Source of the DNA: Gammaproteobacteria bacterium
Lineage (GTDB): Bacteria > Pseudomonadota > Gammaproteobacteria > Steroidobacterales > Foliamicaceae
DNA length: 64,000 bases
NCBI GenBank assembly: GCA_026708965.1
Contig: JAPOTY010000037.1
Span: forward strand, 89,949-153,948
Direction of reading: 5' to 3'
Shown one piece after another: positions 4,729 through 55,446 of this stretch. Position numbers and translations under genes: made by a program. The notes under the pieces were generated by a model. The model searched no databases, had not been told where the DNA came from, and was given only the letters and a program-made list of their open reading frames with translations. Numbering within the stretch: the stretch's first letter is position 1; each line of letters opens with the position of its first letter.

Positions 4729-5007
4729 ATGAGCGATCCGCAGTATTTCGATCATCCGGTGCTGGACCACTTGGTGGAAACCGTGATGCAGCTCGGCAGC
4801 GAACTATGGGCCACGAGGCGCCGGCTCGAGCTGCTGGAGAAGGTGCTGGCGGATGCCGGCGCCTTGCCCGGAAACGCTGTGGAGCTCTATATGCCTTCCG
4901 CTGAAGAAGCCGAACAGGAGGCCGCGAAGCGGGATGCCTTTGTTCGGCGGCTATATGCCGGCTTCGCGCGGGGCGGGGAACAGCAGCAGGCTCCGCCCGA
5001 GCCGTAG
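4729..5007 (+). CDS. Small helical protein of unrecognised family (module copy 2)
   Basis: Start chosen at MSDPQYFDHPVLDHLVETVMQLGSELWATRRRLELLEKVL, with GAGAGG upstream. Paralog of 4180..4524. Followed 23 nt later by its MTase. Confidence 0.7.
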   Translation: MSDPQYFDHPVLDHLVETVMQLGSELWATRRRLELLEKVLADAGALPGNAVELYMPSAEEAEQEAAKRDAFVRRLYAGFARGGEQQQAPPEP

Positions 5008-38355: not shown

Positions 38356-38498
38356 GATCTTATTGCTGTAAGAAACCACTGCTAGAATCAAGCAAACCAA
38401 GATGAGGTGCCGACGCATACACGGATAATGCAACAGCGGGTTTGCTATAGTTGCATCCAAGATCGTTCGGGCCAAAAAGAAAGATTATTGCCCTAGGC

Positions 38499-41400
38499 AT
38501 GGTTTCAGCAAGAATCTCCGCTTTTGCCGCCCTGCTGGGGTTGGTTTTGGCGCTCTCCTATTTTTGGATGCATCGAAATGCAGTTGAAGAGACTGCGCCC
38601 GCAGCGGATACTCCAAGCCCCGAGATCTTGCTTCAGCAGGTGGCGCAAAGAACCCTGCGCGAGAGCGAGGCGGGCACCGACTTGGCCATCCCGCAAGCTC
38701 CTCCGCAGGCCGCGTCGTCCAACTTCGAGGCGGAGCCCGCCGCAAGCGGTTTGACGCTGCCGTCCGGCTACGAGCTCGCCACGCATAGGGGGGCGATGCA
38801 AAGCGCTCCATTGGAAGAAAAAGCGGACGCGCCCATCCCTCCCAATCCCGATTGGCTGGAACCGGCTATTGGCGTGGAATCCATCACGAGGCATCCGCGG
38901 GCTCTAGCGGGCGAGCCGGTGTTCGCCGCGCTGCGCGTTGCGCCGGGCGCATCCTTCACCGATTTGCGCATGCGAATCAAGCGGCTTGGCGCGCGGGTCG
39001 AAGGCGTTTCCGGCGACCACCTGCGCATCCTCGTGCCGCCGAGCGCTCAAATCGAGGCCATTGCCAGTATTCCCGGCATCCTCGGCATCGGCGTTTTGCC
39101 GTCCGCATTGAAATTCGACCGGCAGTTCGCCGAAAGCATGATATCGGCATCCGCAAGCGATGCCACTCCGGTGTTCATCACTCTGATGGGCGAAGACGGC
39201 GATGGCCGCTTGAAGCAAGCCTTGACCGGCCTTGGCGTTGTTGTGGGCGACTACGATGCCGATCTGCGCAGCTACACAGCCAATCTCCCTGCGGGCGCCG
39301 TCCGCCAGGTCGCTGCCCAGGACTACGTGATGCGCATCGAGCCGGTGCCGATTGTCACGACCTACCTAGGTTCGGGAGTGCCTGTCGTGGGCGGCGATGC
39401 GTTGCGGCGCTACAACTACGCATTGGAGGGTTTTCAAGGTTTAACCGGCCGCGGCATTGCCGTTGGCATGGTTGACACGGGTTTGAACGTTCGTCACGAG
39501 GACATGGGCTTTGGACGGACGAGCATTTGCGGCGCCAACTTTGTGCCGAGCGAGCATTGGGATCTTTGGTCGGATCGCGGTCACCACGGCACTCATGTCT
39601 TCGCCGTCATCGCCGGTGCCGGCCGCGGCGATCCGATCCGCGCGGGCATGGCGCCCAATCTCAGTCATCTGCGCTTCGCCAAGGTGCTGAGCGCCTCCGG
39701 AGGCGGAAACTTTGATGATGTCCGGCGCGGCATGACCTACTTGTCGCAAAGCACCCGTTGCGGTACCCAAAGCGGGGCCGGCCCGGCAATCAAGCCGATG
39801 GTTGTGAATGCGAGCCTCGGGTATGGCTCAATCACCGAAAAAGGCCGCGGAGTCGCGGAACGAAAAGTCGATTCCCTTGTTTACGACGGGCAACTTTATG
39901 TGGTCGCGCAAGGGAATTCGGGGGCTTTAGCTTTCTCGAACTTGAGCACGGCCAAAAACGCGCTCGCCGTTGGCGCAGTATTCGATGACGGCGCCATCGC
40001 GCCGTTCAGCAGCTACGGGCCCGCCGGCGATGGCCGCCTGATTCCCAAAGTCATGGCCCCGGGCGTGGGCATCCATGCGGCACGCGGCGGCGGAGCGCGC
40101 GATGGCTATATCGAGTTCAGCGGCACCAGCCAGGCATCGCCCGCAGTTGCCGGTCTCGCCGCGCTCTTGCTTGAGAGCGAACCCAATCTCCGCGACCGGC
40201 CGGCTTTGGTGCGGGCGCGCCTCATGGCGAGCGCCATCAAGCCCGATCCTTATCTCGAATCAGCCGAAGCGTTTCCGAGAGATAACAGCAAGGGTCCCGG
40301 CGCCATGCAGCACCAATACGGCATGGGGCCTGTCTCGGCGCTCGCGAGCATCGCATCCCTTAAGCAAGCCGATGGCTGGCATGCCGGAAGCGCGCTTGCC
40401 GCGCCGGTCGATGGCAGCTACAACCATATTTCCATTGACGTGCCCGAAGGCGCCAGCCGTCTCGACCTGGTCATGACATGGGATGAGGCGCCCGCCGACA
40501 CCCTGACCAGTTCGGTATTCAACGACCTTGATCTCTATCTCGATCTGGGCGCGGATTGCAGCGCCGGCGTTTGCGGCCAGCACGCCTCCCGGTCCAGAGT
40601 TGATAACGTCGAGTGGATCATCATCAACGATCCTGCTCCCGGCACCCACTCCGTCCGGATTGTGCCGGAGCGCCTTTATGGCGAGGCCGTCAACGCCGCT
40701 CTCGCATGGAACATCATTCGCGGCGACTCGACGCCAAAGCTTTCCTTGAAAGCGGAGGAGATTCCCCATGCAGGCGCCAACGAGCCCGTCACGTTCAGGT
40801 TCAGTGTCCATACAAGCGGCTATCTTGCCTACGGCGCAACGCTGCATTTCGGTTGCACCGATACGGTCGGGCAGGATTGCGAGGCCTTGGCGGAAGCGCT
40901 GGAGGGAGCGACCGCGCATGTCGTCCGCAAGGATCATCTCACGAGACCAGTGCCGATCCGGCTGGCCGCGCCGGACAGATCCTCAAATTCTTCCCGGTCT
41001 GTCGGGCCGGCCATCAGCCTGGGCGAGATTGCGCCGGACGATCCGAGATATCTCGAAGTGCGATTGGACAAGAATAAACTGCCCACCGGCACCGGACTTC
41101 ATGTCACAGCCAGCGCATGGAACGCCGTTTCCGCGAGCCGCACACTGTTTGCTGACAACTCCGCGCCGGTGCCCGAAAACGATGCTTTTGAGCAGCGTTT
41201 GCCCGTCATCCCTGACGAAGCGGGCGAGGTGCAGGTTGCGCTCTCGGCCGCATCCCGCGAGCCGGGCGAACCGGACGCGCGAGGCCATACGCGCAGCCTC
41301 TGGTACGAATGGCAAGTGGCGCAAAACGGCATCCACAGAATCAACCTTGCCGAAACGGATACCAACCGCCCGTCAGAGGTGTTATTCGATATCTACACCG

Positions 41401-44369
41401 GCGGGAAGATTGCGGCGCTTACCCATATCGATTCCAAAGAAGGCAGCGAAATCACATTCGCGGCGCGCAGGGGCACGAATTACCAGGTGCGCTTATCGAC
41501 CGATTCGGGAATCAATCCGGTGTTGACCATGCGCTGGGCGCCGGCCGGCACTCCGCCCGCCAATGACCATTTGGCCAATGCGGTGGTTTTGTCCGGAAGC
41601 GAAGGCGCCGTCGCTGGCGATAACAGGGACGCCACGCTTGAACAAGGCGAGTTTTGGGGCGGGCTGGCATCGAGCATATGGTATTCGTGGACCGCGCCCG
41701 CGGATGGCGAATGGGTTTTCGAGGTGCCGCCGCTGGACCCCGATCTTCCGCCGGATACCGGGCTCCCGCCGGGCTTCGAGCTTCCGCCTGATACTCAGTT
41801 GCCGGCGGGTTTGGGAAACGCTTCAGCGGGCGTGGCGGTCATGGTGTTCGCCGGCCGGTCATTGGATGACTTGCGCTTGCTCTCAAAACCCGAACCCGAC
41901 AGCGCGAGCAGGTTTCGTGCTGTGCAAGGCGAGCGCTACCATATCGCCGTTGTGTCAGAGGATGCGGGCGCCTCCACCCGTGAGTTCCAGCTGCGCTGGA
42001 GCCAGGTTGCCGCGACAGAGGACGACACTTTCGCCATTCCGCAAGATTATTTTGACCAGGCTGTGCTGCTTGAAGGCGCGGAGGGTTCGGAGTCCGCTGT
42101 TTATCTGCCCAACTTGACCAAGCAAACGCGCGAGCCAATCGAGACCGGCATCGGCACGCTCTGGTGGCGCTGGACCGCGCCCTCAAGCGGACGATTCACC
42201 TTCCTGCTTAAGGATAGCGGCCTGCAGATCAGCATATTCGAGGGCGAGGCCTTGGATACGCTCACGCTCGTTGCTCTGCGCGCAGGAAGGGCGCCGCTCG
42301 TTCTCGATGCCGAGGGCGGCCGGACCTATCGGATTGCCATCGGGCGTCCGGCCGACGGGATTAATACCCCTTACGACACTTTATTCGGGTTTCGGGTGCC
42401 TTTCGAGTTTCAGTGGGGTGCCACGCCGGGCAACGACGACCGCGCCGGCGCCAGCCGGGTGGCAGGCAGCAACGGCCAGGTTCAATTCTCCATCACGCTC
42501 GCCACCGTGGAGAACGACGAGCCGCTTGCGTTTGATACGGTTGCGCGCGAATCGCTTTGGTGGCGATGGAGCGCGCCGGCCTCGGGATGGCAGGCGTTTT
42601 CCGTCGTCGGTAATCCAGCCTGGGCCATTATTTCCGTGTATCGGGCAAACGACGACTGGACGGTCAGCCCGGAGCCAGTGGCCACCAGCGAATACACCTA
42701 CCTGGGCAACGCTCAGGTGGAAGCCGCGTTCAGGGCCCGCGCTTCAGAGCAGTATCTCGTGCGCGTCGCCAAGCGTCCCGGAGGTTTCGATGAATCGCCG
42801 CTCGATGCCCGGACACTGGCTTGGCGGGAGATTCCCGCGCCAGCCTATCTCGCCTACCGAGGCACGAACGATGACGCGCCGCAGGCCAGCAATCCGATTC
42901 GGGCGCCGGGCAGCCTTGCCATCAACGATGAAGGCGATCTCTTGTTCGCCACAGCGGCATCCGGCTTGCTTGTGTTTCACCGCAACGCCGAAAGCGGAGC
43001 GCTCCGGTTGGCGACGCTTATCGATCGTGAATCAGAAACCGATAGGCTCGACCTAAGCGCTGTCGATGAATCGACACTTTGGTGGAGCAAGCGCCACGGG
43101 CGATTATTCGCGCTCCACTCCATGCAAAGCAATGCTTTTGCCCCGCCGGTCGGGACCGCATCGAAGTGGATTCGACACGAAATCAGCGTTGAGAACGACC
43201 CGTCTCCGAGTTTTCTCGGCCGCAATGCGTTCGCCGCCACGTCGGACGACCGCTTTTTCTACGTGTCGCAAAATTCAGGCAATCAGGAGGCCAAAATCGG
43301 CGTGTATAGCGTTGAATCGGCATCGACCATCCGGCGCATGCAAAGTCTTGTCGCAACCACCCCCGAAAACGACACGGAAGTGCTTGTTGATGCGCTCGGA
43401 ATCGTGCAGCAGCTGGTCGTCTCGCCGGATGACTCGCACCTTTTTGCGGCAACCGAGTCCGCGTTATTGGTGTTTTCCATCGATCCGCAAAACGGGCAGC
43501 TTGAACGAGTGCATCATGTTTTGGTCGAGCCTGCCCCGGACACGCCTTTTGAGGAATTTTTCCGGCTATCGGGAGTTTCGCTGAACAGCGCGGCGGATCG
43601 ATTATTCGTGGCTGGCGATTTTGCTCCGCAGGTTGCGGTGTTTGATGTCTCCGAAGGTTTTTCGATTCCCCGCCATCTCGATACCTTGACAGCGTTTGGC
43701 GACGACAAAAGCTTCGCTGTGTTGTCGCATCTGGCTGGTCCGAGAGGTATAAACTTCGTGCCATGCTGGCGGATGTTCACGCAACACGGCATCGATGCCG
43801 TGGATGTGCTGTGCGAGGGCGGTCAATTTGTCGCCCTATGGGACAAAGAGGAGCAGAAGCTGCGCGTTGAGGACTGGGGCATGAGCGGTCGTCCAAACCG
43901 CTTCGACCAGATATTGCCGTTCGCGTTCCTTGGATTGACATTGCGAGGCCAGCAAGCGGCAACTAGCCCGGGCGGCGAGCATCTCTACGTAGCCGCCAGC
44001 TCGCGCGTCTGCGAGACCGACTGCATTCATATCTTTGAGCGCTCACGCACCGCAAAGGCCGATATATCGGCCAATCAGGCGCCGATCATCAACAAGCGGC
44101 TCAGAAACCAGGTCGCCATAGTCGGGCGGCCGTTCTCTTATTGGATTCCCCGCGGCGCCTTCACCGACCCCGATCGCGATATGCTCGCTTATTCAGCCTC
44201 CGGACTGCCCGCCTGGCTGAGCTTCGATACCCGTTCACTGCTATTCAGCGGTACGCCCGAAGGGCGCCACGTCACGATCGCCCCGCTGGTCATTGAAGTC
44301 GCTGCAAGCGATCAAGAGGGAGAGAGCGCAACGTTGCGTTTTGCCCTGCGGGTATTGCCCAACGGGTGA
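38499..44369 (+). CDS. Giant secreted multidomain protein: signal anchor, propeptide-like repeats, subtilisin (S8) protease, P/PPC-like domain, four PPC-like repeats, beta-propeller, C-terminal cadherin/dystroglycan-type Ig domain
   Basis: Catalytic triad motifs VGMVDTG (Asp codon 39474..39476), HHGTH (about 39585) and GTSQASP (Ser codon 40128..40130). Repeats ND..A..L....SLWY.W.AP..G run over about 41178..42785. Propeller blades cover about 42850..44045. The motif SASGLPAWLSFD...FSGTP lies at about 44075..44360. The ATG at 38499 gives MVSARISAFAALLGLVLAL; the track ORF begins at TTG 38451. Confidence 0.85.
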   Translation: MVSARISAFAALLGLVLALSYFWMHRNAVEETAPAADTPSPEILLQQVAQRTLRESEAGTDLAIPQAPPQAASSNFEAEPAASGLTLPSGYELATHRGAMQSAPLEEKADAPIPPNPDWLEPAIGVESITRHPRALAGEPVFAALRVAPGASFTDLRMRIKRLGARVEGVSGDHLRILVPPSAQIEAIASIPGILGIGVLPSALKFDRQFAESMISASASDATPVFITLMGEDGDGRLKQALTGLGVVVGDYDADLRSYTANLPAGAVRQVAAQDYVMRIEPVPIVTTYLGSGVPVVGGDALRRYNYALEGFQGLTGRGIAVGMVDTGLNVRHEDMGFGRTSICGANFVPSEHWDLWSDRGHHGTHVFAVIAGAGRGDPIRAGMAPNLSHLRFAKVLSASGGGNFDDVRRGMTYLSQSTRCGTQSGAGPAIKPMVVNASLGYGSITEKGRGVAERKVDSLVYDGQLYVVAQGNSGALAFSNLSTAKNALAVGAVFDDGAIAPFSSYGPAGDGRLIPKVMAPGVGIHAARGGGARDGYIEFSGTSQASPAVAGLAALLLESEPNLRDRPALVRARLMASAIKPDPYLESAEAFPRDNSKGPGAMQHQYGMGPVSALASIASLKQADGWHAGSALAAPVDGSYNHISIDVPEGASRLDLVMTWDEAPADTLTSSVFNDLDLYLDLGADCSAGVCGQHASRSRVDNVEWIIINDPAPGTHSVRIVPERLYGEAVNAALAWNIIRGDSTPKLSLKAEEIPHAGANEPVTFRFSVHTSGYLAYGATLHFGCTDTVGQDCEALAEALEGATAHVVRKDHLTRPVPIRLAAPDRSSNSSRSVGPAISLGEIAPDDPRYLEVRLDKNKLPTGTGLHVTASAWNAVSASRTLFADNSAPVPENDAFEQRLPVIPDEAGEVQVALSAASREPGEPDARGHTRSLWYEWQVAQNGIHRINLAETDTNRPSEVLFDIYTGGKIAALTHIDSKEGSEITFAARRGTNYQVRLSTDSGINPVLTMRWAPAGTPPANDHLANAVVLSGSEGAVAGDNRDATLEQGEFWGGLASSIWYSWTAPADGEWVFEVPPLDPDLPPDTGLPPGFELPPDTQLPAGLGNASAGVAVMVFAGRSLDDLRLLSKPEPDSASRFRAVQGERYHIAVVSEDAGASTREFQLRWSQVAATEDDTFAIPQDYFDQAVLLEGAEGSESAVYLPNLTKQTREPIETGIGTLWWRWTAPSSGRFTFLLKDSGLQISIFEGEALDTLTLVALRAGRAPLVLDAEGGRTYRIAIGRPADGINTPYDTLFGFRVPFEFQWGATPGNDDRAGASRVAGSNGQVQFSITLATVENDEPLAFDTVARESLWWRWSAPASGWQAFSVVGNPAWAIISVYRANDDWTVSPEPVATSEYTYLGNAQVEAAFRARASEQYLVRVAKRPGGFDESPLDARTLAWREIPAPAYLAYRGTNDDAPQASNPIRAPGSLAINDEGDLLFATAASGLLVFHRNAESGALRLATLIDRESETDRLDLSAVDESTLWWSKRHGRLFALHSMQSNAFAPPVGTASKWIRHEISVENDPSPSFLGRNAFAATSDDRFFYVSQNSGNQEAKIGVYSVESASTIRRMQSLVATTPENDTEVLVDALGIVQQLVVSPDDSHLFAATESALLVFSIDPQNGQLERVHHVLVEPAPDTPFEEFFRLSGVSLNSAADRLFVAGDFAPQVAVFDVSEGFSIPRHLDTLTAFGDDKSFAVLSHLAGPRGINFVPCWRMFTQHGIDAVDVLCEGGQFVALWDKEEQKLRVEDWGMSGRPNRFDQILPFAFLGLTLRGQQAATSPGGEHLYVAASSRVCETDCIHIFERSRTAKADISANQAPIINKRLRNQVAIVGRPFSYWIPRGAFTDPDRDMLAYSASGLPAWLSFDTRSLLFSGTPEGRHVTIAPLVIEVAASDQEGESATLRFALRVLPNG

Positions 44370-44392
44370 AAACGCGAAGGGCGCGGGCCGCT

Positions 44393-45271
44393 TCAGGCGA
44401 GCGCGGTCCCGAACAGGGCGAGCAGGCGGCTCCAGGCCCGTTCGGCCTGCGCCTCGTTATAGACGGCGGAATCGGGCGGGCACCAGCCATGCAGCGCCCC
44501 CTCATAGACCTCGATCTCAGCGGGAAGCCCTGCGGCCGCGAAGGTCTCGCGCAGCACGTTCTTCGCCTCGGGATCGCTGTCGTCGTCGTTTTCGGCGATG
44601 GCGAAGAGGTAGTGCGCATTCATTTCCTCAACGAGCAGATGAGGGCTGTCCGGCCCGTCGGTCACGAGCCCGCCGCCGTGGAATGAGGCGCCGGCGCCGA
44701 TGCGGTCGGAGCGCGCCCAAGCGGTGCGCATCGTCATTGGGCCGCCCATGCAGTAACCGATGGTGCCCATTCCGCGGCCGGGATCAACAGCCGCCTGGGT
44801 ATCGAGGAAATCGACAAAAGCCCGCGCGTCGGTCACGTGGGTTTCCGCGTTGAGTTGGCGATAGAGCGGAAACACCGTGTTCCTGACGGACTCGTCCTGG
44901 AAGGTTGCGCCTTCAGGCACCACCGGCGCGCGCGCCGCGCGGTAGAACGGATTGACCACCAGCACCGAGTAGCCCGACTCGGCCAGCCGCCGGCCCATCC
45001 GCCTGAAGGCCGGTCGCAGCCCCAGAATATCCGGCCATACGATCACGCCGGGATGGCTTCCGGAAGCGGGATGCGCGAAGTGGCAGTCCGCAACGCCATC
45101 GGGCGTGGCGATCTCGACGGTCCGCTCGGTGACCTCCTGCGCATCCGCTCCCCGGGGCAGCAGCATGGCAAGCCCGGCTCCTGCCGAAAGCGCGGTGAAG
45201 CGGCGCCGGCTCAACTCGTTTTGGCTGCTCAGATGCTCGCGGTTTTCCCTTAGTGTTCGATCATCGCACAT
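44393..45271 (-). CDS. Tat-exported dienelactone-hydrolase-family protein
   Basis: 292 aa. Twin-arginine signal SRRRFTALSAGAGLAMLLPRGADA. Cys nucleophile elbow GYCMGG. C-terminal HGW. Confidence 0.85.
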   Translation of the reverse strand: MCDDRTLRENREHLSSQNELSRRRFTALSAGAGLAMLLPRGADAQEVTERTVEIATPDGVADCHFAHPASGSHPGVIVWPDILGLRPAFRRMGRRLAESGYSVLVVNPFYRAARAPVVPEGATFQDESVRNTVFPLYRQLNAETHVTDARAFVDFLDTQAAVDPGRGMGTIGYCMGGPMTMRTAWARSDRIGAGASFHGGGLVTDGPDSPHLLVEEMNAHYLFAIAENDDDSDPEAKNVLRETFAAAGLPAEIEVYEGALHGWCPPDSAVYNEAQAERAWSRLLALFGTALA

Positions 45272-45326
45272 GATTTGATCCCTATTGCCGTGACGGCGGT
45301 TATCCCGGGCCGAATCTGCAGGCTGC

Positions 45327-45608
45327 TCAGCTCAGGTCGTTGATAATGCTTTCGATCAGTTCGGCGCGGGCCTTCAGACGGCCCGCGGCCTCTTCTTTCG
45401 TGGGCCTGTGGTTTTCAATCGCTTGGCGCGAAAGAGCGCCTTTCCCGCCCAGCAGTTCTTCGTGGGTGCTGATGCGGTCGCGCAGCACGCAGATTTCCAT
45501 GGCCAGCCGCCAGATCACCGCAACCAGTTGATCGGAGCTCAAATCCTCGATCTGGCGCGGGCGCGGCAGCTTGTAGGGCCGGGCCGGATCGGCGCCGATA
45601 GCGGCCAT
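45327..45608 (-). CDS. Small helical protein of unrecognised family (module copy 3)
   Basis: 93 aa. Aligns without gaps to 4180..4524 and 4729..5007 (LSSDQLVAVIWRLAMEICVLRDRISTHEELL...HRPTKEE). ATGA overlap with the stop of the upstream MTase. Confidence 0.7.
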   Translation of the reverse strand: MAAIGADPARPYKLPRPRQIEDLSSDQLVAVIWRLAMEICVLRDRISTHEELLGGKGALSRQAIENHRPTKEEAAGRLKARAELIESIINDLS

Positions 45609-46732
45609 CAGGTTTTCACGCCGCCGAATATATGGTATTCGCCCGAACCTAGGGGGTCGTATTCGGCGAAAACATGCTCGGCGTCAAAGCCGCCGTCGAT
45701 CAGCGCCTGACGCATGTCGGTGTCGGCATAGCCGGTCCAGAAGGGCTCGCCGTTGTTGACGACCTGCCAGTGATTGGTGACCTGCTTGGTGATGGAGAGG
45801 CGGTTGGGCTGGTAGGGCGTGTCCCCGTTCAGAAAGATCCCGCCAGGCGCCAACAGGCGATGGGCTTCGGCCATGATGCCGGGCAGGATGTCATGCCAGG
45901 TTTCATGGAACATGATGTGCGACACGATCAAGTCGAACTGGCCGTCGGCGAAGCCTGTTTCGTTCGCGTTGGCCTGCCGGTAGTTGATGGCCAGCCCTTT
46001 GTCCTCCGCCCATACATGGGCAAATTGCAAGAAGGGCCCGGATAGATCCACGCCCCATACCTCGGCCTTCGGAAACGCCTGCTTGTAGGCAATGGTATGC
46101 ACGCCCACGCCGCAGCCCATGTCGAGCAGGCTGGCGGGATCAGGTTTCGCGAACCGGCGGCGCAGAGCGCCTAGAAGGTAGTTTCCCATGCCTGGGTCGC
46201 CCACCTCGTCGCCCTCCGAGAGCCCCTTGGCGGCGCGGTACAGCTCGCCGGTGCCCATGTAATCCATGCCCCGCCTGAGGCTTGCATCGCCCGGCTGGCC
46301 GAAATAGCCGCCCGGCTGGCGATGAATTTCAACCTGCCGGATGGGATCGGGCGGAACGAAATCTTCTTTCAGCTCCAAGCGTCCTAGCGGCTCTCTCCTT
46401 GCCAGGGCCTCGCGGCGCGCTTCAAATTCCGGCAACAGCCGGTCGCAGGTTTCGCCTACGGTTTCCCACATCAGATCCTGGGAGGTGAATACGGAGCTTC
46501 CCCACAACTGGAAGAGGTGGTCTCCGCGAAAGGCCTCGGTTCCCTCCAGGCGATCCTTGGGCGCGCGTCCATGCGCCTTCGCATAGCCGGGCTTGACGGC
46601 ATCCTCGTAGCGCTTCGCAAGCCGCGCCTCCAGCGGGCCGTTCAAGTAGCCTTTCAGCGCGCCCACGAATGCCTGTCTCGATGCCTCGTCGTGGCGGGGG
46701 CGGTAAATTTCCTTCAATGTCTTTTCCGTCAT
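45608..46732 (-). CDS. Atypical class I SAM-dependent methyltransferase (module copy 3)
   Basis: 374 aa. LLDMGCGVGV, AEVWGVD, FDLIVSHIMFHET and APGGIF. Shares the EIHRQPGGYFG block and helical N-domain with 2922..4166 and 5031..6080. Confidence 0.85.
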   Translation of the reverse strand: MTEKTLKEIYRPRHDEASRQAFVGALKGYLNGPLEARLAKRYEDAVKPGYAKAHGRAPKDRLEGTEAFRGDHLFQLWGSSVFTSQDLMWETVGETCDRLLPEFEARREALARREPLGRLELKEDFVPPDPIRQVEIHRQPGGYFGQPGDASLRRGMDYMGTGELYRAAKGLSEGDEVGDPGMGNYLLGALRRRFAKPDPASLLDMGCGVGVHTIAYKQAFPKAEVWGVDLSGPFLQFAHVWAEDKGLAINYRQANANETGFADGQFDLIVSHIMFHETWHDILPGIMAEAHRLLAPGGIFLNGDTPYQPNRLSITKQVTNHWQVVNNGEPFWTGYADTDMRQALIDGGFDAEHVFAEYDPLGSGEYHIFGGVKT

Positions 46733-46946
46733 TGGGTTATCCTCGCGCGGAACGTCTCAATGTGCGGGGCATCTTATATCCGCGAGCACGGTAGCGAAAC
46801 TAGCCATTGCGTTATTGAGGCTCAAGTGGGCATTCGCTCTCTTGGGCGATGAACGCACAGACATTGCGATGGAATTCATTGCTCGGCTTAGGGCGCGGCG
46901 GGCAGGGGCATCCGCCTCTGGCGCTTGCCGCCAGCGGCGAGCAGGA

Positions 46947-47375
46947 TCAGAGCGTTTTCAGGTAGGCAATGAGCGCGGCGCGATTCCGCGCCTGCGGAAG
47001 GCCCGCGAAGTTCATGCTGGTGTCGGGAACCAGGTCGAACGGGCGCTGCAGCCACAGATCGAGTTTTTCTTCGTTCCAAACGAAATCCTGCGCTTTCAAG
47101 GCATCGGAATAGATTGAATCCTCCAGAACCGCCACTTGCCGGTTGAAGATTCCCGCGAGATTCGGGCCAATCTTGCTGCCGGAAACAATTTCCGTGGCAT
47201 GGCAGGCTTGGCAGAAGACATAAAGCCGCTTGCCCCGCGCAACCAACCTGGAAGCGGTGCTGTCGGATTGGGCGGCATCCTGCGCGACCAGCGTCGGAGG
47301 CAGAGCAACCGCCCCGCCAAGCAGAATTGCGAACAACGCGCCAGCGGCCATTGCCCTCCCGGTTTTTGAGATCAT
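46947..47375 (-). CDS. Periplasmic class I c-type cytochrome
   Basis: 142 aa with a signal peptide. Single heme motif CQACH and a distal Met region (DTSMNFAGL). Confidence 0.85.
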   Translation of the reverse strand: MISKTGRAMAAGALFAILLGGAVALPPTLVAQDAAQSDSTASRLVARGKRLYVFCQACHATEIVSGSKIGPNLAGIFNRQVAVLEDSIYSDALKAQDFVWNEEKLDLWLQRPFDLVPDTSMNFAGLPQARNRAALIAYLKTL

Positions 47376-47621
47376 AGTGTGCGCTCCAGTATTTCGACAG
47401 CCGCCCGCTCACCAATGCCGATTCCATTCCGCACAGCAACAGTTTAAGAGACATCACGCCAGCGAATAAGCCCGCTGGTTGGTGCTTGCATGCACCGCCG
47501 GAGCCGCGCGCCGCGATCAGCGCTCTTCTGCCGCTATAGAAGCGAGCCGGCTTGCGCGCGGTCGCTCGGCTTATTCAGTATGCGAGAATGCTGCTTCTGC
47601 AGTGAATGCGGAGGACAAGCA

Positions 47622-48669: not shown

Positions 48670-49290
48670 ATGCTTGAAGCGCGAGGGCTGACGATCTGGA
48701 GAGGCGAGCGGCGCCTTTGCCACGATTTGTCCTTCAGTTTGGCGTCCGGCTCGCTGCTGTTGCTGCAAGGGCGAAACGGCTCCGGCAAAACATCGCTTTT
48801 GCGGTGTCTGGCCGGCCTGCTGCCGCTTGAATCAGGAACAGTCGAACTGAATGGCGTTGCCTATGGACGCGATCCGGCGCGCTATCTCCGTTGCCTGGGA
48901 TGGCTGGGGCACAAGGACGGGCTCAAGGCCGAACTGAGCGTTCGCCGCAATCTTGCCTTCAGGCTGCGGCTCGCGGGGCTTGCGGGTCAGGCGGGCAAGG
49001 AAGATGAACTGCTTGAAAGGGCCGGATTGAAGGGGCTTGAGAACCGGGTTGCAGCGCAACTGTCGTACGGGCAACGCCGGCGGCTGGCGCTGGCCGGCTT
49101 GATCGGGGTCGCCCCTCCGCTCTGGCTGCTGGACGAGCCTGATGCCAACCTGGATGCGCAGGGCAGGGAATGGCTGCAGCGGGAACTCGATTCGCACTTG
49201 GATGCGGGCGGCTGCGCCGTGCTAGCGGGCCATCGGATGGAATGGCGGTCCCGCGGCCCGGCGCCGCAGCTGATTCTTGGAATCGCCTAA
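48670..49290 (+). CDS. ccmA: Heme exporter ATP-binding protein CcmA
   Basis: 206 aa. Walker A GRNGSGKTS, signature LSYGQRRR, Walker B LWLLDEP. First gene of the ccm cluster. Confidence 0.9.
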   Translation: MLEARGLTIWRGERRLCHDLSFSLASGSLLLLQGRNGSGKTSLLRCLAGLLPLESGTVELNGVAYGRDPARYLRCLGWLGHKDGLKAELSVRRNLAFRLRLAGLAGQAGKEDELLERAGLKGLENRVAAQLSYGQRRRLALAGLIGVAPPLWLLDEPDANLDAQGREWLQRELDSHLDAGGCAVLAGHRMEWRSRGPAPQLILGIA

Positions 49291-49955
49291 TGAGAATAGG
49301 GCTGGCAGTGCTGAGGAATGAGTTTTTAATCTACTTTAAGAAGTGGGTACATATAATTATTAATATAGCATTTTTTATTTTCTCAACGTCTCTTTTTTCT
49401 CTCGTGGCAGGATTGGAGCAGGGATTGCTGGCGGAGTGGGGAGCCGGGGTGATCTGGGTGGTTGCCTTGCTATCGATGCTGCTTGCCATGCCGCTGCTGT
49501 TTCAACCGGACCGCGAGGATGGGACACTGGATCTTATGCTTTTAAGCGCAATGGATCCGGCTTGGCTGGCGCTGGCCAAGGCGGGCGCCAACTGGTGCGT
49601 TTTCGGGCTGCCATTGGTGCTTCTGTCGCCGTTGTTGGGAGCCAGCTACGGCTTGGAAGGAATTGCGCTGGTGGTTCTTCCCGCCACTCTGGCGCTCGGA
49701 ACGCCGGCGCTGATTCTGCTGGCCACCGTGGCCGCCGCCCTAACCGCTGGACTGCGCCGCGGCGTGGGATTGCTGGCGCTGCTGGTGCTGCCGCTGGCCT
49801 TGCCGATATTGCTGTTCGGCGTGCGGGCAACGGAACTGGCCGCGGACGGCTTTCCGACCGCCGCCCCGCTCATGATGCTGGGGGCGTTTCTGCTGCTGGC
49901 TCTGGGACTGCTGCCCTGGGCCGCAGGCGCTGCGCTGCGCGCCACGGCAAACTGA
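49290..49955 (+). CDS. ccmB: Heme exporter permease CcmB
   Basis: Start at MRIGLAVLRNEF, with the ATG sharing one base (49290) with the ccmA TAA stop. Collinear with E. coli CcmB from memory (...GVIWVVALLS...DGTLDLM...). Confidence 0.9.
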   Translation: MRIGLAVLRNEFLIYFKKWVHIIINIAFFIFSTSLFSLVAGLEQGLLAEWGAGVIWVVALLSMLLAMPLLFQPDREDGTLDLMLLSAMDPAWLALAKAGANWCVFGLPLVLLSPLLGASYGLEGIALVVLPATLALGTPALILLATVAAALTAGLRRGVGLLALLVLPLALPILLFGVRATELAADGFPTAAPLMMLGAFLLLALGLLPWAAGAALRATAN

Positions 49956-50034
49956 CCATGCCCCCGCGCGCCTTCCCCAAGCTAAAATAAGGCCTGCGGC
50001 TACGCCTTAGCCACAACCTGTCAGAGCACTCGAA

Positions 50035-50784
50035 ATGCGACTTCCCAATTGGCTGCACAAGCTTGCGTCTCCTCCGCATTTCTACCGGATTGCGGCGCGC
50101 ATCGAGCCTTGGATGCTCTGGTCGGGCCTTGCCGCCATCGCAGTCGGCGCTTTCGGCGGCTTGCTGCTGGCGCCGCCGGACTATCAGCAGGGCGATGCCT
50201 ACCGCATTATTTACTTCCATGTTCCCGCCGCCTATCTGGCGATGCAGCTCTACGCGCTGATGGCTATCGGCTCGGCGATCGGGCTGATATGGCGGATCAA
50301 GCTGGCCTATGCCATCGCCGCTGCCGCAGCGCCGGTGGGGCTGGCGTTCACCGGGCTGGCGCTGGCCACCGGCATGCTTTGGGGCAAGCCCATGTGGGGC
50401 GCCTACTGGAGCTGGGGCGATGCGCGGCTGACTTCGGTGCTGGTGATGTTCTTTCTCTATTTGGGCTATATGCTGCTGCATGCCTCGCTGGAAGAGCGTT
50501 CGACGGCGGACCGCGCGGCCGGCATTCTGGCAGTGGTGGGCGTGGTGAACCTGCCGATCATCAAGTTCTCGGTGGAATGGTGGAGCAGCCTGCACCAGGG
50601 GCCAACCATTTCCCGCTTGGCCGCGCCCGCAATCACCTGGGATATGCTTTGGCCTCTGCTGGTGATGGTGGCCGGGGCGGTGCTGTTTTCCATGGCGGTC
50701 ACGCTGACCCGGGCACGGGCCGAAGTGCTGTTGCGCGAGCGCGGCGCCCGCTGGGTGCAAGACGCGGTGGCGGCGGACGCATGA
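50035..50784 (+). CDS. ccmC: Heme exporter / heme lyase subunit CcmC
   Basis: 249 aa. WWD-type motif WGKPMWGAYWSWGDARLTS. Confidence 0.95.
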   Translation: MRLPNWLHKLASPPHFYRIAARIEPWMLWSGLAAIAVGAFGGLLLAPPDYQQGDAYRIIYFHVPAAYLAMQLYALMAIGSAIGLIWRIKLAYAIAAAAAPVGLAFTGLALATGMLWGKPMWGAYWSWGDARLTSVLVMFFLYLGYMLLHASLEERSTADRAAGILAVVGVVNLPIIKFSVEWWSSLHQGPTISRLAAPAITWDMLWPLLVMVAGAVLFSMAVTLTRARAEVLLRERGARWVQDAVAADA

Positions 50785-50960
50785 GGGAATTCCTAGCCAT
50801 GGGCGGCTATGCTGCGTTCGTCTGGTCCTGCGCGGGACTGTCGTTCGCGGTTTTGGCGGGGTTGATGCTCACTGCGCGGCGGCGCCTGCGGGGCGTGCGC
50901 GGACGTATACGGCAACGGAACGCGGCGCCGGACGAGGGCTCCTGGGAGCTGCGCGCATGA
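50781..50960 (+). CDS. ccmD: Heme exporter protein CcmD
   Basis: 59 aa (MREFLAMGGYAAFVWSCAGLSFAVLAGLML...). ATGA overlaps with both ccmC and ccmE. Correct position and size. Confidence 0.75.
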   Translation: MREFLAMGGYAAFVWSCAGLSFAVLAGLMLTARRRLRGVRGRIRQRNAAPDEGSWELRA

Positions 50961-51403
50961 CGCCGCGACGGCGCCGAATGGTGGCAATGGCCAGCGGCCT
51001 CGTCTGCTTGGCGGCAGCCACGGCGCTGGTGCTGACCGCTTTCGAGCAGAATATGCTTTATTTCTATACGCCCACGCAGATCGCCTCAGGCGAGGCGCCG
51101 GAAAGGCGGCGCCTGCGCGTTGGCGGGCTGGTCGAACGGGGCAGCGTGAGGCGCTTGTCCGGGGCGTTGGAAGTGCGCTTCGACGTGACCGATCTGGACC
51201 GCAGCGTCACTGTTGCCTATGCGGGCGTGCTGCCCGATCTTTTCCGTGAAGGGCAGGGCGTGGTTGCCCATGGCCGGCTGGGCGCGGACGGGCTGTTTGA
51301 GGCCGATGAAGTCCTGGCCCGTCACGACGAGAACTATATGCCGCCGGAAGTCGCGGAAATGCTGGAGGAAAAGGGCCATCCCCCGGATGCCTCCCTTCGT
51401 TGA
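50957..51403 (+). CDS. ccmE: Cytochrome c maturation heme chaperone CcmE
   Basis: 148 aa with an N-terminal anchor. RVGGLVERGSV...GVLPDLFREGQGVVAHG...VLARHDENYMPPEV (heme-binding His). Confidence 0.95.
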   Translation: MTPRRRRMVAMASGLVCLAAATALVLTAFEQNMLYFYTPTQIASGEAPERRRLRVGGLVERGSVRRLSGALEVRFDVTDLDRSVTVAYAGVLPDLFREGQGVVAHGRLGADGLFEADEVLARHDENYMPPEVAEMLEEKGHPPDASLR

Positions 51404-51484
51404 CACTCCTTCCGGGAACCAAGGAATCTCGTCTTCCAAGCCGTTGATGGCGCTTCGATCCCGCCCCTCGCTGCCGGTATAAGC

Positions 51485-53416
51485 ATGATTCCTGAAATCG
51501 GCCAGATCAGCCTGGCGCTCGCCTTATGCTTGGCGGTGGCCTTGGCCGTATTCCCGCTGGCGGGAGCGCATACGGGCAATGTCCGGTGGATGGAAGCAGG
51601 CCGGCCTTGCGCGCTGGGGATGCTGGCGTTTGTCGCGCTGGCGTTCGCCATGCTGGCGGTCAGCTTCTTCCGCCATGACTTCAGCGTCCAGTACGTGGCC
51701 CTGCATTCGAACCTCAAGCTGCCGGCCATGTACCGCTTCGCAGCGATCTGGGGCGCGCACGAGGGCTCGCTGGTTCTCTGGCAGCTCATCCTGAGCGGCT
51801 GGACCGCCGCCGTGGCGCTGGCCAGCCGCACGCTGCCGCAAACGCTCAGGGCGCGGGTTCTCGGCGTGCTGGGCCTGATCAGCATCGGCTTTCTGCTGTT
51901 CATCCTGCTCACGTCCAACCCCTTCCTGAGGCTGTTTCCTGCCGCCGCCGATGGCGCCGATCTGAACCCGCTGCTCCAGGATCCCGCCTTGGCGATGCAC
52001 CCTCCGTTGCTGTACATGGGCTATGTGGGGCTGGCCGTGCCTTTCGCCTTCGCGATCGCGGCCCTGCTGAGCGGCAAGCTCGACCGCCGCTGGGCGCGCT
52101 GGACCCGTCCATGGACCACCGCCGCCTGGATGTTTCTCACGGTGGGGATCGCCTTGGGAAGCTGGTGGGCCTACTACGAGCTGGGCTGGGGCGGATGGTG
52201 GTTCTGGGATCCAGTGGAGAACGCCTCGTTCATGCCTTGGCTGGCCGGCACCGCGCTGATCCATACCTTGGCCGTTACCGAGCGCCGCGGGCTGTTCGGC
52301 AACACCACGCTGCTTTTGGCGATCGCGGCCTTTGGCTTGAGCCTGCTCGGCACCTTCCTGGTTCGCTCCGGCGTGCTGGTTTCGGTGCATGCCTTCGCTA
52401 GCGATCCGGCCCGCGGCTTGTTCATCCTGGTGTTCCTGGCGGTCGTGATGGGCGGCGCGCTGCTGCTGTACGCATTCAGGAACGTCGCCGCCAATCCGCA
52501 GACCGGCTTTAAGCTGGTCTCGCGGGAATCGGCGCTGCTGGTCAACACGGTGCTGCTCAGCGCCGCCACGGTTCTGGTGTTGTTCGGCACGCTTTATCCG
52601 CTGGCGCTGGATGCCTTGGATATGGGAAAGATCTCCGTGGGGCCGCCTTATTTCAACTTGGTTTTCATCCTCCCCATGCTGCCGCTGCTGCTGGTTGTGG
52701 GCGCCGGCATGCATGCTTCCTGGAAGGCGACAGATACCGCTGCCTGGGCACGGAAGCTCAGGATTCCAGCCGCGGCCGCCGTTCTCGGGATGATCGCGCT
52801 GACCGCCGCGGCCTACGGATTTGCGGGCGTATTGACGGGCATCGGGATATTGGCCGGGTTATGGGTGATTGCGGCGGCGCTGCGCGATCCTGCGGTCTGG
52901 CTGCTTCGGCGCGGCCCGCGGCCGGCGCGTTCAGCCTGGGGCATGCAGGTGGCGCATTGCGGGCTGGGCGTGACCACGCTGGGCATCGTCGTTGTTTCCG
53001 CTTGGGGCGTGGAAACCGATCGCCGCCTAGCGCTGGGCGGAAGCCTTGAAGTGTCCGGATACGAATTCCAGCTTGAGCGCATCGAACAGGTCGAAGGACC
53101 GAATTACCAAGCCGCCCAAGGCGTGGTCCGGGTTTCCCGCGACGGCCGGCCGGTCACCACGCTGTATCCGCAAAAGCGCGTCTATGAGGTGCAGCAAAGC
53201 CCGATGACCGAGGCCGGCATCGATGCCGGATGGCGGCACGACCTGTTCGTCGCGCTCGGCGAGCCGCTGGGCGAGGAGGCTTGGAGCGTGCGCGTGCAAG
53301 TGAAGCCGCTGGTGCGATTTATCTGGCTGGGCGCGCTGATCATGGGACTGGGGGGTCTGCTGGCGATTTCGGATCGGCGTTACCGGGTGGCCTCGCCTAA
53401 GGAGGATGGGTCGTGA
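51485..53416 (+). CDS. ccmF: Cytochrome c heme lyase subunit CcmF
   Basis: 643 aa, polytopic. WGAHEGS and WWFWDPVENASFMPW motifs. Confidence 0.95.
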   Translation: MIPEIGQISLALALCLAVALAVFPLAGAHTGNVRWMEAGRPCALGMLAFVALAFAMLAVSFFRHDFSVQYVALHSNLKLPAMYRFAAIWGAHEGSLVLWQLILSGWTAAVALASRTLPQTLRARVLGVLGLISIGFLLFILLTSNPFLRLFPAAADGADLNPLLQDPALAMHPPLLYMGYVGLAVPFAFAIAALLSGKLDRRWARWTRPWTTAAWMFLTVGIALGSWWAYYELGWGGWWFWDPVENASFMPWLAGTALIHTLAVTERRGLFGNTTLLLAIAAFGLSLLGTFLVRSGVLVSVHAFASDPARGLFILVFLAVVMGGALLLYAFRNVAANPQTGFKLVSRESALLVNTVLLSAATVLVLFGTLYPLALDALDMGKISVGPPYFNLVFILPMLPLLLVVGAGMHASWKATDTAAWARKLRIPAAAAVLGMIALTAAAYGFAGVLTGIGILAGLWVIAAALRDPAVWLLRRGPRPARSAWGMQVAHCGLGVTTLGIVVVSAWGVETDRRLALGGSLEVSGYEFQLERIEQVEGPNYQAAQGVVRVSRDGRPVTTLYPQKRVYEVQQSPMTEAGIDAGWRHDLFVALGEPLGEEAWSVRVQVKPLVRFIWLGALIMGLGGLLAISDRRYRVASPKEDGS

Positions 53417-53958
53417 GCGGCGGCCGCCGGCGCGTGCGCTGGGTTCTGCTGCTGCCGTGCGCGGCGCTGGCTGTGATGGTGTATTTCTTCGCCGTCAGCC
53501 TGGGGCGCGACCCCAGCCTGGTGCCTTCGCCGCTCATCGGTCGCGCGGCGCCGGAATTCTCGCTGCCGGAGCTGCTGGACCCGGGTTCCGTTTTCTCCTT
53601 GCAGGATATCGAGGAAGGCCCTTGGATGCTGAATGTTTGGGCAAGCTGGTGCTCGGGCTGCATCGTCGAGCACGACTTCCTTATGGCGCTGGGCCGGGTT
53701 GACGCGCCGCTGTACGGGCTTAACTGGAAAGACGCGCCGGCGGACGCGCTGGAATGGTTGCAACTCAGAGGCAATCCCTACCGGGTCATTGCCGTCGATG
53801 CCGACGGGCGCGCCGGCATCGACTGGGGTGTTTACGGCGCGCCGGAAACCTTCCTGATCGATGCCAAAGGCATTGTGCGGCATCGGCATGTGGGACCTCT
53901 CGACGAAGCGGTATTCTCGCAAGTGTTCCTGCCCGTGCTCGAAGGCAGCATGCAATGA
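53413..53958 (+). CDS. ccmG: Thiol:disulfide interchange protein DsbE/CcmG
   Basis: 181 aa. Thioredoxin motif WASWCSGC, and GVYGAPETFLID. Confidence 0.95.
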   Translation: MSGGRRRVRWVLLLPCAALAVMVYFFAVSLGRDPSLVPSPLIGRAAPEFSLPELLDPGSVFSLQDIEEGPWMLNVWASWCSGCIVEHDFLMALGRVDAPLYGLNWKDAPADALEWLQLRGNPYRVIAVDADGRAGIDWGVYGAPETFLIDAKGIVRHRHVGPLDEAVFSQVFLPVLEGSMQ

Positions 53959-54374
53959 AAGGCTTTAAGGCGGCCACGGCGGCGGTTTCGCTGATGCTGG
54001 CGGCGGCAAGCGCCAGCGCCGTGGATACCGAGGCGCCGCTTCGGAGCGCCGAGCAGCAGAGCCTCTACCGCAAGCTGCTTGAGGAAGTGCGTTGCATGGT
54101 CTGCCAGAACCAGAACTTGGCCGATTCCGATGCGCCGCTGGCGAAAGACATGCGCCGCGAATTGCGCCGCATGGTGGCAGAGGGGGCAAGCGAGGGCGAT
54201 GTCAAGCAGTTTCTGCTGGACCGTTATGGCGACTTCGCCCTCTACCGTCCCCGGCTGGCGCCCAATACGCTCTTGCTTTGGATTGGCCCCGGCGTGATCG
54301 TGGCCCTTGCGCTGGGCGCGCTCGCGCTCGTCATCCGGCGCCGCATGAAGATGCCGATACCCGAGGAGGATTAG
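53955..54374 (+). CDS. ccmH: Cytochrome c-type biogenesis protein CcmH
   Basis: Start at MKGFKAATAAV (ATGA overlap with ccmG). RCMVCQNQNLADSDAP motif and a C-terminal TM segment. Confidence 0.9.
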   Translation: MKGFKAATAAVSLMLAAASASAVDTEAPLRSAEQQSLYRKLLEEVRCMVCQNQNLADSDAPLAKDMRRELRRMVAEGASEGDVKQFLLDRYGDFALYRPRLAPNTLLLWIGPGVIVALALGALALVIRRRMKMPIPEED

Positions 54375-54384
54375 CGCGCGGACC

Positions 54385-55446
54385 ATGGCAGCCGGTTTCG
54401 TCGCAATCTGCGTGTTTCTGGTCGCAGCGGCGCTGGCCTGCGTCGCGCCGCCGCTATGGCGCGACCGCGGCAAGCCCGCAAGCACTGCGGCGCTGACCGC
54501 ATCCTGCCTGCTGATCCCGGTGCTGGCCGCGCTGACCTACCTGCAATCCAGCAACCACGAATGGGCCCATGCCGGCATCGGGGCGGGGGAAGGCGGTTCG
54601 CCTCCAGCAGTGGAGGAATTGATCGAGCCCTTGCGCGCAAGGCTGGAAGCGTCGCCGGACGATCCCAGGGGCTGGATGCTGCTGGGGGCCTCCTACATCC
54701 AGGTGGAGCGTTACTCCGAGGCGGCACAGGCCTTCGACCGGGTGCTGGGCCTGACCGGCGGGCGCGATATGGACGCGCTCATGGGCAAGGCCGAGGCGCT
54801 GATTCTCGACAATCCCGAGCGCCTCCTGCAGGATGCGGGCGAAATGGTCGAGCAGGTGCTGCAGACGGACCCCGCCAATCCCAAAGGCCTTTGGTACGGC
54901 GGCTTGCGAGCCAGCGCAACGGGCGAGAGCGTGATCGCCGTGCAGCGCTGGCGGGCGATGCTGGAAGGCCCGGTCACGCCCGAGGTGAGGGCCATCGTTG
55001 AGGGCGAACTCAATCGGCTGGGCGCGAGCGCTGGCGCAAGCGTTGGCGCAAGCGTTGGCGCAAGCGTTGGCACGAGCGGGCCGGCCAGCGCAGAAGAGGG
55101 AGCCGCTCTCGCGCTCGGCAACGTGGAGCTTCGATTAAGCCTCGGCCCGCCTGCATCCCCGCCGCCCGGCGCTGTTCTTTTCGTCGTGGCGCGCATTCCC
55201 GGCCAGGTCGGGCCGCCGCTGGCCGCAAAACGCGTGGACGGCGCACGTTTTCCGCTGCAAATCCGATTGAGCGATGCCGATGCCATGCTCCCCGGCGCCA
55301 AGATCTCAGATCAGCCCGAACTGGCCATCACCGCCCGCCTCTCCGCCAGCGGCCAGACCGCCCGCAACGCCGGCGACTACGAAGCGCAAGGCACTTGGCA
55401 AACAGGGCAGGGCGCACTGGAGCTAGAACTGATCCATCAGCCTTAA
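54385..55446 (+). CDS. ccmI: c-type cytochrome biogenesis protein CcmI (TPR)
   Basis: 353 aa. N-terminal TM segments followed by TPR-like repeats. Last gene of the cluster. Confidence 0.8.
   Translation: MAAGFVAICVFLVAAALACVAPPLWRDRGKPASTAALTASCLLIPVLAALTYLQSSNHEWAHAGIGAGEGGSPPAVEELIEPLRARLEASPDDPRGWMLLGASYIQVERYSEAAQAFDRVLGLTGGRDMDALMGKAEALILDNPERLLQDAGEMVEQVLQTDPANPKGLWYGGLRASATGESVIAVQRWRAMLEGPVTPEVRAIVEGELNRLGASAGASVGASVGASVGTSGPASAEEGAALALGNVELRLSLGPPASPPPGAVLFVVARIPGQVGPPLAAKRVDGARFPLQIRLSDADAMLPGAKISDQPELAITARLSASGQTARNAGDYEAQGTWQTGQGALELELIHQP
55021..55080 (+). repeat. In-frame 12-bp tandem repeat within ccmI: three perfect GGCGCAAGCGTT units flanked by two degenerate units
   Basis: Read directly. 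Encodes GASA-GASV-GASV-GASV-GTSG. Confidence 0.9.

Follow-up and report, generated by a model that had tools for sequence, protein, structure and literature searches.

A class I methyltransferase and a small, predicted all-helical protein are encoded as a co-duplicated gene pair in Proteobacteria

In a 64,000-nucleotide stretch of the Gammaproteobacteria bacterium assembly GCA_026708965.1 (Steroidobacterales; Foliamicaceae; contig JAPOTY010000037.1, positions 89,949 to 153,948 of the forward strand), hereafter the window, we analysed the segment 44393–46732 and the genes around it. M3, a putative methyltransferase gene, is followed there by s3, which encodes a protein of 93 residues, and by DLH, which encodes a dienelactone hydrolase family protein. 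M3–s3 is a true third copy of a methyltransferase–small protein pair (M–s) in the window, and this gene pair is widespread and undescribed. On balance, we lean towards reading M3–s3 as a coupled two-protein unit, in which a cytoplasmic small-molecule methyltransferase would work with a dedicated, non-catalytic helical partner. DLH is a recent, lineage-specific neighbour and not an obligate third component. The genes of the three pairs are:

45608..46732, minus strand: M3, predicted class I S-adenosylmethionine (SAM)-dependent methyltransferase, 374 residues, from its matches to Pfam Methyltransf_25/11.
45327..45608, minus strand: s3, predicted all-helical partner protein, 93 residues; its start shares 1 nucleotide (nt) with the M3 stop codon.
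2922..4166, minus strand: M1, paralogous methyltransferase with a predicted twin-arginine translocation (Tat) signal (MINRRSVMGLFAGAASLAAAPFASRAAQ), from alignment and homolog N-termini.
4180..4524, minus strand: s1, small partner, 114 residues, 13 nt upstream of M1.
4729..5007, plus strand: s2, small partner of M2; the open reading frame is open from 4657.
5031..6080, plus strand: M2, paralogous methyltransferase that belongs to the Tat clade but has lost its signal peptide, from alignment and clustering.

Using a profile built from s3 orthologs alone, we retrieved s1 (E = 4e-10) and s2 (E = 1e-8) and no others among the 497 open reading frames of the window. A profile of M3 orthologs likewise found M1 (E = 2.5e-47) and M2 (E = 2e-39), and a combined family profile, in which the three window copies were included, covers M1 and M2 nearly end to end, N-terminal domain included. 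Common to M1, M2 and M3 are the block (E/D)(I/F)HxQPGGY, the SAM motifs and the N-domain positions D15, R19, F22, Q85 and W89. These matches bear out two proposals of an initial annotation of this DNA, namely that M3 is a paralog of both methyltransferases at 3–6 kb and that the segment holds the third copy of a two-gene module. The small proteins had been described as aligning without gaps; this holds from D26 onwards, over a core of about 68 residues that runs to the C-terminus, but not for the N-terminal tails, which differ.

M3 and s3 are tightly coupled. The junction reads ...ACC TGATGG CC..., so that the stop–start overlap exists as first described, although its sequence is TGATG, with 1 nt shared, rather than ATGA. 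Several M3–s3 orthologs have a 4-nt overlap and others have gaps of a few nt. A scan of 44200..47600 gave no promoter-like sites, and terminator-like sites were at the level expected from shuffled sequence.

The pairing extends well beyond the window. A one-genome-per-species scan returned 340 methyltransferase relatives, and 80 loci were fetched; counted with the window, these give 101 methyltransferases in 84 non-redundant sources. The loci span Woeseiaceae, Steroidobacteraceae, Sphingomonadales, Rhodospirillaceae, Caulobacterales and others, and cultured carriers include Sphingobium sp. Leaf26, Novosphingobium mangrovi B2637 and Altererythrobacter sp. GH1-8. An s gene is adjacent on the same strand for 75–77 of the 101 methyltransferases, lying downstream in 59–63, upstream in 11–14 and on both sides in five, and in two further cases a single gene separates M from s. 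P0330, a distant representative of the s family, also adjoins a methyltransferase, and its locus contains another such pair.

The two families have diverged in parallel. The distance matrices of M and s correlate with r = 0.80 over 77 pairs, compared with a maximum of 0.11 among 500 permuted pairings, the test being this matrix correlation and not a comparison of reconciled trees. Within the window, M1 and M2 are 38% identical and either is 26% identical to M3, while s1 and s2 are 31% identical and either is 25% identical to s3; both families therefore give the topology ((1,2),3). Co-duplication of methyltransferase and small protein, which had been raised as a test of the module, is supported by both the correlation and the congruent topology. 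The gene order of copy 3, M then s, had been noted as the reverse of the other two copies. This is indeed seen, and it is a fixed property of the paralog clades: within the M3 clade, M precedes s in 36 of 38 members, with overlaps or gaps of a few bases, whereas in the M1/M2 clade (6 members) s lies upstream in five, downstream in none and is not nearby in one. As the order is fixed per clade, the swap is a clade character and not a local rearrangement.

Copies of the module were also observed in arrays and on extrachromosomal elements. An alphaproteobacterial metagenome-assembled genome (MAG) from a lake (L056) carries six methyltransferase and three small-protein genes within 12 kb, and a further locus (L073) has four methyltransferases in a tandem array of the module. 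The M–s pair is present on large sphingomonad plasmids and chromids, e.g. Sphingomonas sp. JE1 pJE1 (L089, 33478-35066), and occurs at five places on Novosphingobium resinovorum pSA1. These plasmid-borne pairs sit among dehydrogenases, flavin oxidoreductases and hydantoinases. Their RefSeq labels are 'class I SAM-dependent methyltransferase' and 'hypothetical protein', nothing more specific, and a literature search on plasmid pJE1 returned nothing relevant. A toxin–antitoxin reading of the pair was dropped, given its vertical conservation at 57–100% identity across orders and its metabolic contexts.

The larger protein, M3, matches Methyltransf_25 with 75.5 bits (cut-off 27) and Methyltransf_11 with 69.9 bits over residues ~200–300; residues 1–190 have no Pfam or NCBIfam match, and no signal peptide is present. 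In the AlphaFold2 model (predicted local distance difference test score, pLDDT, 91.7; predicted template modelling score, pTM, 0.91), two helices of 40 residues each (14–54 and 72–111) form a family-specific hairpin, which is followed by the HxQPGGY loop and then by the Rossmann core. The SAM motifs LLDMGCGVG and VWGVDLS are conserved in all M clades. With Pfam scores above the gathering cut-off, motif I of the form (D/E)xGxGxG, an acidic residue closing beta-2 and a Rossmann core in the model, M3 is by prediction a class I Rossmann-fold SAM-dependent methyltransferase. When the model was compared with the PDB using Foldseek, the core alone was matched, best by CouO and NovO and then by Rv2258c, DsyB and phosphoethanolamine methyltransferases; a sequence search of the PDB agrees with these relatives, which are mainly small-molecule enzymes. 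M3 is not recognised as BioC, as NCBIfam TIGR02072 scored 56.4 bits against a cut-off of 184.95, though it is the top NCBIfam model of M3. More than 460 M homologs are all named merely 'class I SAM-dependent methyltransferase'.

Among 99 family members, Q85, H137, P140, H239, H276, E277 and E289 are invariant, and W89, Y143, R292, N327 and E329 are nearly so. H276–E277 (FHE) aligns with the 'FHR' of NovO, which we take to be a catalytic His–Arg pair, with an invariant Glu in M in place of the Arg. From the position of H276 on this motif we infer, by analogy, that it would serve as the general base on a small acceptor. H137, Q139, Y143, H239, H276-E277, R292, N327 and E329 probably form the acceptor site. 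Conserved positions were also compared between methyltransferases with and without an adjacent s in search of interface residues, and no clear difference was found.

The small protein has no known relative in the databases searched. s1, s2 and s3 have no Pfam or NCBIfam match, and 46 members of the s family, compared with Pfam at permissive thresholds (E = 5), gave coiled-coil noise alone. Neither the s profile against PDB sequences nor Foldseek with the AlphaFold2 model of s3 returned a relative. A profile–profile comparison of s with M gave a probability of 0.3%, and s is not a detached piece of the M N-domain. The s3 model (pLDDT 75) contains helices 25–55, 61–66 and 71–92, and D26, E38, R43 and R45 are invariant across the 46 members. 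Searched against 1.84 billion cluster representatives, the s profile has 1411 relatives, each representing a cluster at 50% identity, and the 150 best listed are all stand-alone proteins of 57–200 residues. No match to the Trm112 family was found for the 46 members in Pfam even at E = 5, and the predicted fold has three helices. Nor does s resemble the precursor of a ribosomally synthesised and post-translationally modified peptide (RiPP): it is conserved over its whole length, and its variable neighbourhoods hold no RiPP maturation genes.

Under the reading that we favour, s3 would most likely bind M3, perhaps at the helical hairpin, and serve it as a non-catalytic subunit or activator; the overlapping genes would set a fixed expression ratio. 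The pair would be the functional unit, and as a whole it has been duplicated repeatedly within Proteobacteria, where its contexts vary and are mainly catabolic or related to transport. A partner subunit is favoured by the translational coupling, the co-evolution of s with M, the stand-alone size of s, and its lack of a signal even where M has one. Several observations weigh against this reading. Natural M–s fusions are absent among the listed matches, in which s relatives have 57–200 residues and M ~260–420. For about 24 of the 101 methyltransferases, no s lies within 8 kb, although the conserved residues are the same in these enzymes; for this quarter, s would be supplied in trans or is not always required. 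Some methyltransferases have two small proteins beside them, and in certain arrays the numbers of M and s are unequal, neither of which a strict 1:1 complex predicts. In addition, the neighbourhoods of M are too variable to name a substrate.

A different relationship, to which we assign a low probability, is that s is the private methyl-acceptor protein of M, methylated at the invariant D26, E38, R43 or R45. Co-evolution and co-duplication are equally expected of an enzyme and its private substrate, the invariant charged residues lie in a conserved helix, and a variable number of s per M (s-M-s, M-s-s) would suit several substrates. Among PDB sequences, M3 is matched best by LahSB, which methylates a ribosomal peptide; however, this match covers the Rossmann core only, and the structural relatives of M3 are mainly small-molecule methyltransferases. 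Other peptide-maturation genes are absent nearby, and the C-termini of s differ between paralogs, so that no terminal acceptor is conserved. In the Tat clade, the enzyme is predicted to be exported whereas s is signal-less, which is easier to reconcile with a co-exported or escorting partner than with a substrate.

Turning to the neighbours of the module, all three window copies adjoin exported hydrolase-type genes, and the initial annotation had taken this as a functional link. These and the other flanking genes are:

44393..45271, minus strand: DLH, dienelactone hydrolase family protein with a predicted Tat signal, 292 residues (PF01738, E = 4e-36).
2081..2941, minus strand: alpha/beta-fold protein with a predicted Tat signal, of the SABP2/PNAE (polyneuridine aldehyde esterase)/HNL (hydroxynitrile lyase) family (Abhydrolase_6/1); overlaps the end of M1 by 20 nt.
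6144..8165, plus strand: S41 peptidase lipoprotein with BACON and PDZ domains, downstream of M2.
46947..47375, minus strand: small c-type cytochrome (PF00034 match), 214 nt upstream of M3.
38451..44369, plus strand: exported S8 (subtilase) protein, 1972 residues, with He_PIG/cadherin-like repeats; convergent with DLH.

The product of 44393..45271 is, judged by its sequence, a member of the dienelactone hydrolase family: it matches PF01738 with 125 bits (cut-off 21), contains the nucleophile elbow GYCMGG, and has dienelactone hydrolases / carboxymethylenebutenolidases as PDB relatives. Its N-terminus reads SRRRFTALSAGAGLAMLLPRGADA followed by QE, i.e. SRRRF, a hydrophobic stretch and a cleavage site between ADA and QE, and this signal is kept in orthologs. 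Together with the 55-nt spacing from s3 and the coordinates, these features agree with the Tat-signal hydrolase originally described downstream of s3. A Tat signal was called here from an (S/T)RRxFL-like motif, an uncharged stretch of 12–20 residues and an AxA-type cleavage site, all of them sequence features only, and DLH, M1 and the 2081..2941 protein all qualify. DLH is probably co-transcribed with M3–s3 in the window lineage. Its stop lies 23 nt from that of the convergent S8 peptidase gene (38451..44369), which is also present in four loci that are copies of the window's own strain (L001-L004).

On the other side of the module, homologs of the small cytochrome c are found in L001-L004 only, with none in L005-L009; the gene is strain-specific and outside the module. 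A complete cytochrome c maturation (Ccm) operon (48670..55446, plus strand) was observed just past the Zn-dehydrogenase gene that adjoins the module, and at the same position in L001-L004.

Following DLH across orthologous loci, we found it after M–s only in the window's own strain and in the five closest orthologous loci (L005-L009, 81–83% identity). The slot is taken by a major facilitator superfamily (MFS) transporter in the ortholog of 74% identity and by a flavin monooxygenase in that of 64%. Elsewhere in the M3 clade, no further gene accompanies the pair; a YebC gene runs divergently on one side and an aldehyde dehydrogenase or MotAB convergently on the other. Among 89 immediate downstream neighbours, the four DLH genes are all of the window lineage and no other hydrolase family is prominent, the commonest families being aldehyde dehydrogenase (8) and flavin/NAD oxidoreductases. 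Upstream, YebC (6), MFS transporters (5), flavin monooxygenases (5) and solute-binding proteins (4) are the most frequent of 80. An S41 peptidase stands beside the module only in the window and in the close relatives L085 and L091. The proposed enrichment of the module beside exported hydrolases therefore fails at the family level, and the functional link with them was not upheld.

The S41 genes are themselves duplicated in the window: two tandem paralogous peptidase lipoproteins, with N-terminal BACON domains and a PDZ domain, follow copy 2 (6144..8165 and 8184..10274, plus strand), and one such gene is kept beside the M2 ortholog in L085 and L091.

The alpha/beta-fold gene at 2081..2941 departs in part from this pattern. 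The closest PDB relative of its product is 6tj2 (an unnamed alpha/beta hydrolase), followed by PNAE, hydroxynitrile lyases, SABP2 and pheophorbidase, several of which are methyl esterases. An ortholog with a Tat signal (L092:7225-8133, 55% identity) has the same position after s and a Tat-type M, the M of that locus being 66% identical to M1. Further relatives directly follow M–s in L172 and are found no more than 4 kb from M in L045 and L053, so that the SABP2/PNAE-like subfamily is found with the methyltransferase in five independent loci, the window included, which exceeds the chance expectation for a single-copy gene. This recurring neighbour suggests methyl-ester chemistry. In the reverse direction, 1 to 3 of 32 long metagenomic loci of the SABP2-like hydrolase family carry M or s. 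An iterated search of the alpha/beta hydrolases drifted into isochorismatase-like proteins, and of this search only the adjacent-gene counts were used, together with single-pass phmmer results. The 2081..2941 protein had been called a Ser esterase. It does keep the GHSFAG motif; however, in this protein and its L092 ortholog an Arg replaces the GHDAM His of the L045/L053 relatives, a residue presumably catalytic by analogy with SABP2, and the protein may be a binding protein or work by a different mechanism. Given the reverse count and the Arg for His, the SABP2-like association is a lead, not a rule.

These neighbours bear on a second alternative, a methyl-ester cycle in the manner of BioC/BioH, in which M would be a carboxyl O-methyltransferase and the adjacent esterase-type hydrolases (DLH, SABP2/PNAE-like) would process the ester. 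An exported hydrolase-type gene beside each window module, the membership of the protein after M1 in the plant methyl esterase family (PNAE, SABP2, pheophorbidase), its Tat-signal ortholog at the same place in L092 with relatives near M in L172, L045 and L053, the synteny of M3–s3–DLH in five related MAGs, and BioC as best, if far sub-threshold, NCBIfam model of M3 are all in keeping with it. We nevertheless consider such a cycle improbable. The DLH adjacency ends at ~80% identity, hydrolases are not enriched among the 89 downstream and 80 upstream neighbours, and M or s is found in so few loci of the esterase family. The compartments differ as well, M3 being cytoplasmic whereas DLH carries a Tat signal; the window esterase-like protein and its L092 ortholog have Arg for the presumed catalytic His; and S41 peptidases cut peptide bonds, not esters.

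Other operon contexts of the pair were recorded. In the largest clade, a recurring operon consists of a family III CoA-transferase, an isochorismatase-like protein, an unannotated 297-residue protein, (s), M and s, with hydantoinase A/B and a 3-hydroxy-3-methylglutaryl-CoA (HMG-CoA)-lyase-like gene divergent and TonB-ExbBD genes after it (loci L042, L044, L046, L050, L054, L057, L061, L064, L068 and L076). In three Sphingomonadales loci (L033-L035), a methylaspartate ammonia-lyase gene follows M–s. These contexts hint at branched dicarboxylic acid metabolism.

The most surprising property of the module family is its Tat-signal clade, though this lies outside 44393–46732. The M1 start, MINRRSVMGLFAGAASLAAAPFASRAAQ, is confirmed by homolog N-termini: 115 of the 120 best M1 homologs (49–93% identity) have at their N-terminus a canonical twin-arginine signal whose c-region is basic, and the five without one look like truncated gene calls. 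The SAM motifs of the M1 clade are intact. In L085-L088, L091 and L092, a signal-less s gene of 106–121 residues either overlaps the start of M or ends at most ~20 nt before it. By clustering, M2 falls within the M1 clade, but it has no signal peptide. The orthologs of M2 in L085 and L091, which agree with it in N-terminus or length, are signal-less too, so M2 looks like a secondary return to the cytoplasm. From the twin-arginine signals, the M1 clade is predicted to comprise exported proteins of SAM-methyltransferase fold. We found no report in the literature of a Tat-exported or periplasmic SAM methyltransferase, and we know of no Tat substrate with a SAM-binding methyltransferase fold.

It is conceivable, if in our view doubtful, that in this clade folded M is exported with SAM bound, that signal-less s is carried along, and that the pair functions in the periplasm, with copy 3 as the cytoplasmic version. 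The periplasmic M would then sometimes be accompanied by a co-exported SABP2-like esterase-fold protein. SAM is not known to be available in the periplasm; bound SAM would therefore have to act as a cofactor that is not consumed, or be restored on site with methyl groups from a donor in the environment.

Least probable in our estimation is that s acts in the manner of NapD/TorD as an assembly or export chaperone that holds the N-terminal region of M until SAM is bound or export occurs and stays outside the working enzyme, as s is small, cytoplasmic and family-specific and in Tat-clade loci lies directly upstream of the signal-bearing M, as napD does before napA, but the M3 clade and the largest clade are signal-less and keep a tightly coupled s, which is predicted to be all-helical and has no sequence relation to NapD or TorD.

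The pair matters in several respects. The s family has 1411 representatives, with no annotation, structure or detectable relative, and is almost always tied to one kind of methyltransferase, which makes s a clean candidate for a new class of bacterial methyltransferase partner. Abundant uncultured Proteobacteria of marine, freshwater and soil habitats (Woeseiaceae, Steroidobacteraceae, Sphingomonadales and Rhodospirillaceae) commonly carry the pair, and as it is often multiplied in catabolic and transport islands, it may point to a methylation step in organic-matter turnover that has gone unrecognised. With the Tat-signal clade comes the sharper question of what role a SAM-binding fold would play in the periplasm. 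For annotation, a 'hypothetical protein next to class I methyltransferase' becomes recognisable as a unit, of which the hydrolase neighbours are not part.

Among characterised enzymes, the coumarin C-methyltransferases NovO and CouO (PDB 5mgz, 5m58) come closest to the M core in structure and almost so in sequence, with His276 of M aligned to their motif His. The resemblance is limited to the core, at ~22% identity, and M has Glu for the Arg after the His. NovO and CouO (~230 residues) also lack the N-terminal helical hairpin, the HxQPGGY loop and a partner protein, whereas M has an extra N-terminal region of 190 residues. BioC/BioH likewise combines a class I methyltransferase gene with a nearby gene for an alpha/beta-fold esterase, and bioH is among the weak NCBIfam matches of the 2081..2941 protein; however, the scores are far below the curated cut-offs (56 vs 185 bits), and the esterase neighbour of M is not conserved family-wide.

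For the M1 clade, the likeness would be to Tat cargo that carries a pre-bound cofactor or a signal-less partner, such as glucose-fructose oxidoreductase with NADP or the small and large subunits of hydrogenases. The Tat pathway carries folded, cofactor-loaded and possibly two-subunit cargo, as M1 with s1 would be; M3, unlike these systems, has no signal.

The Trm112-type small activator subunits of class I methyltransferases (Trm9, Trm11, Mtq2, Bud23) offer a parallel for s itself, in that a small protein is dedicated to a class I SAM methyltransferase, which possibly needs it to be stable or active. Trm112 itself consists of a zinc knuckle and beta-strands and enlarges the sheet of the methyltransferase. 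In contrast, s is predicted to be all-helical, belongs to no Pfam family, is encoded beside one specific methyltransferase and has co-duplicated with that enzyme. A bacterial pair, MtrP-ML1347 of mycobacteria, has been predicted to be a Trm112-type system (bioRxiv 10.64898/2026.07.15.738315). By analogy, a Trm112-type activator may serve as the working model for s.

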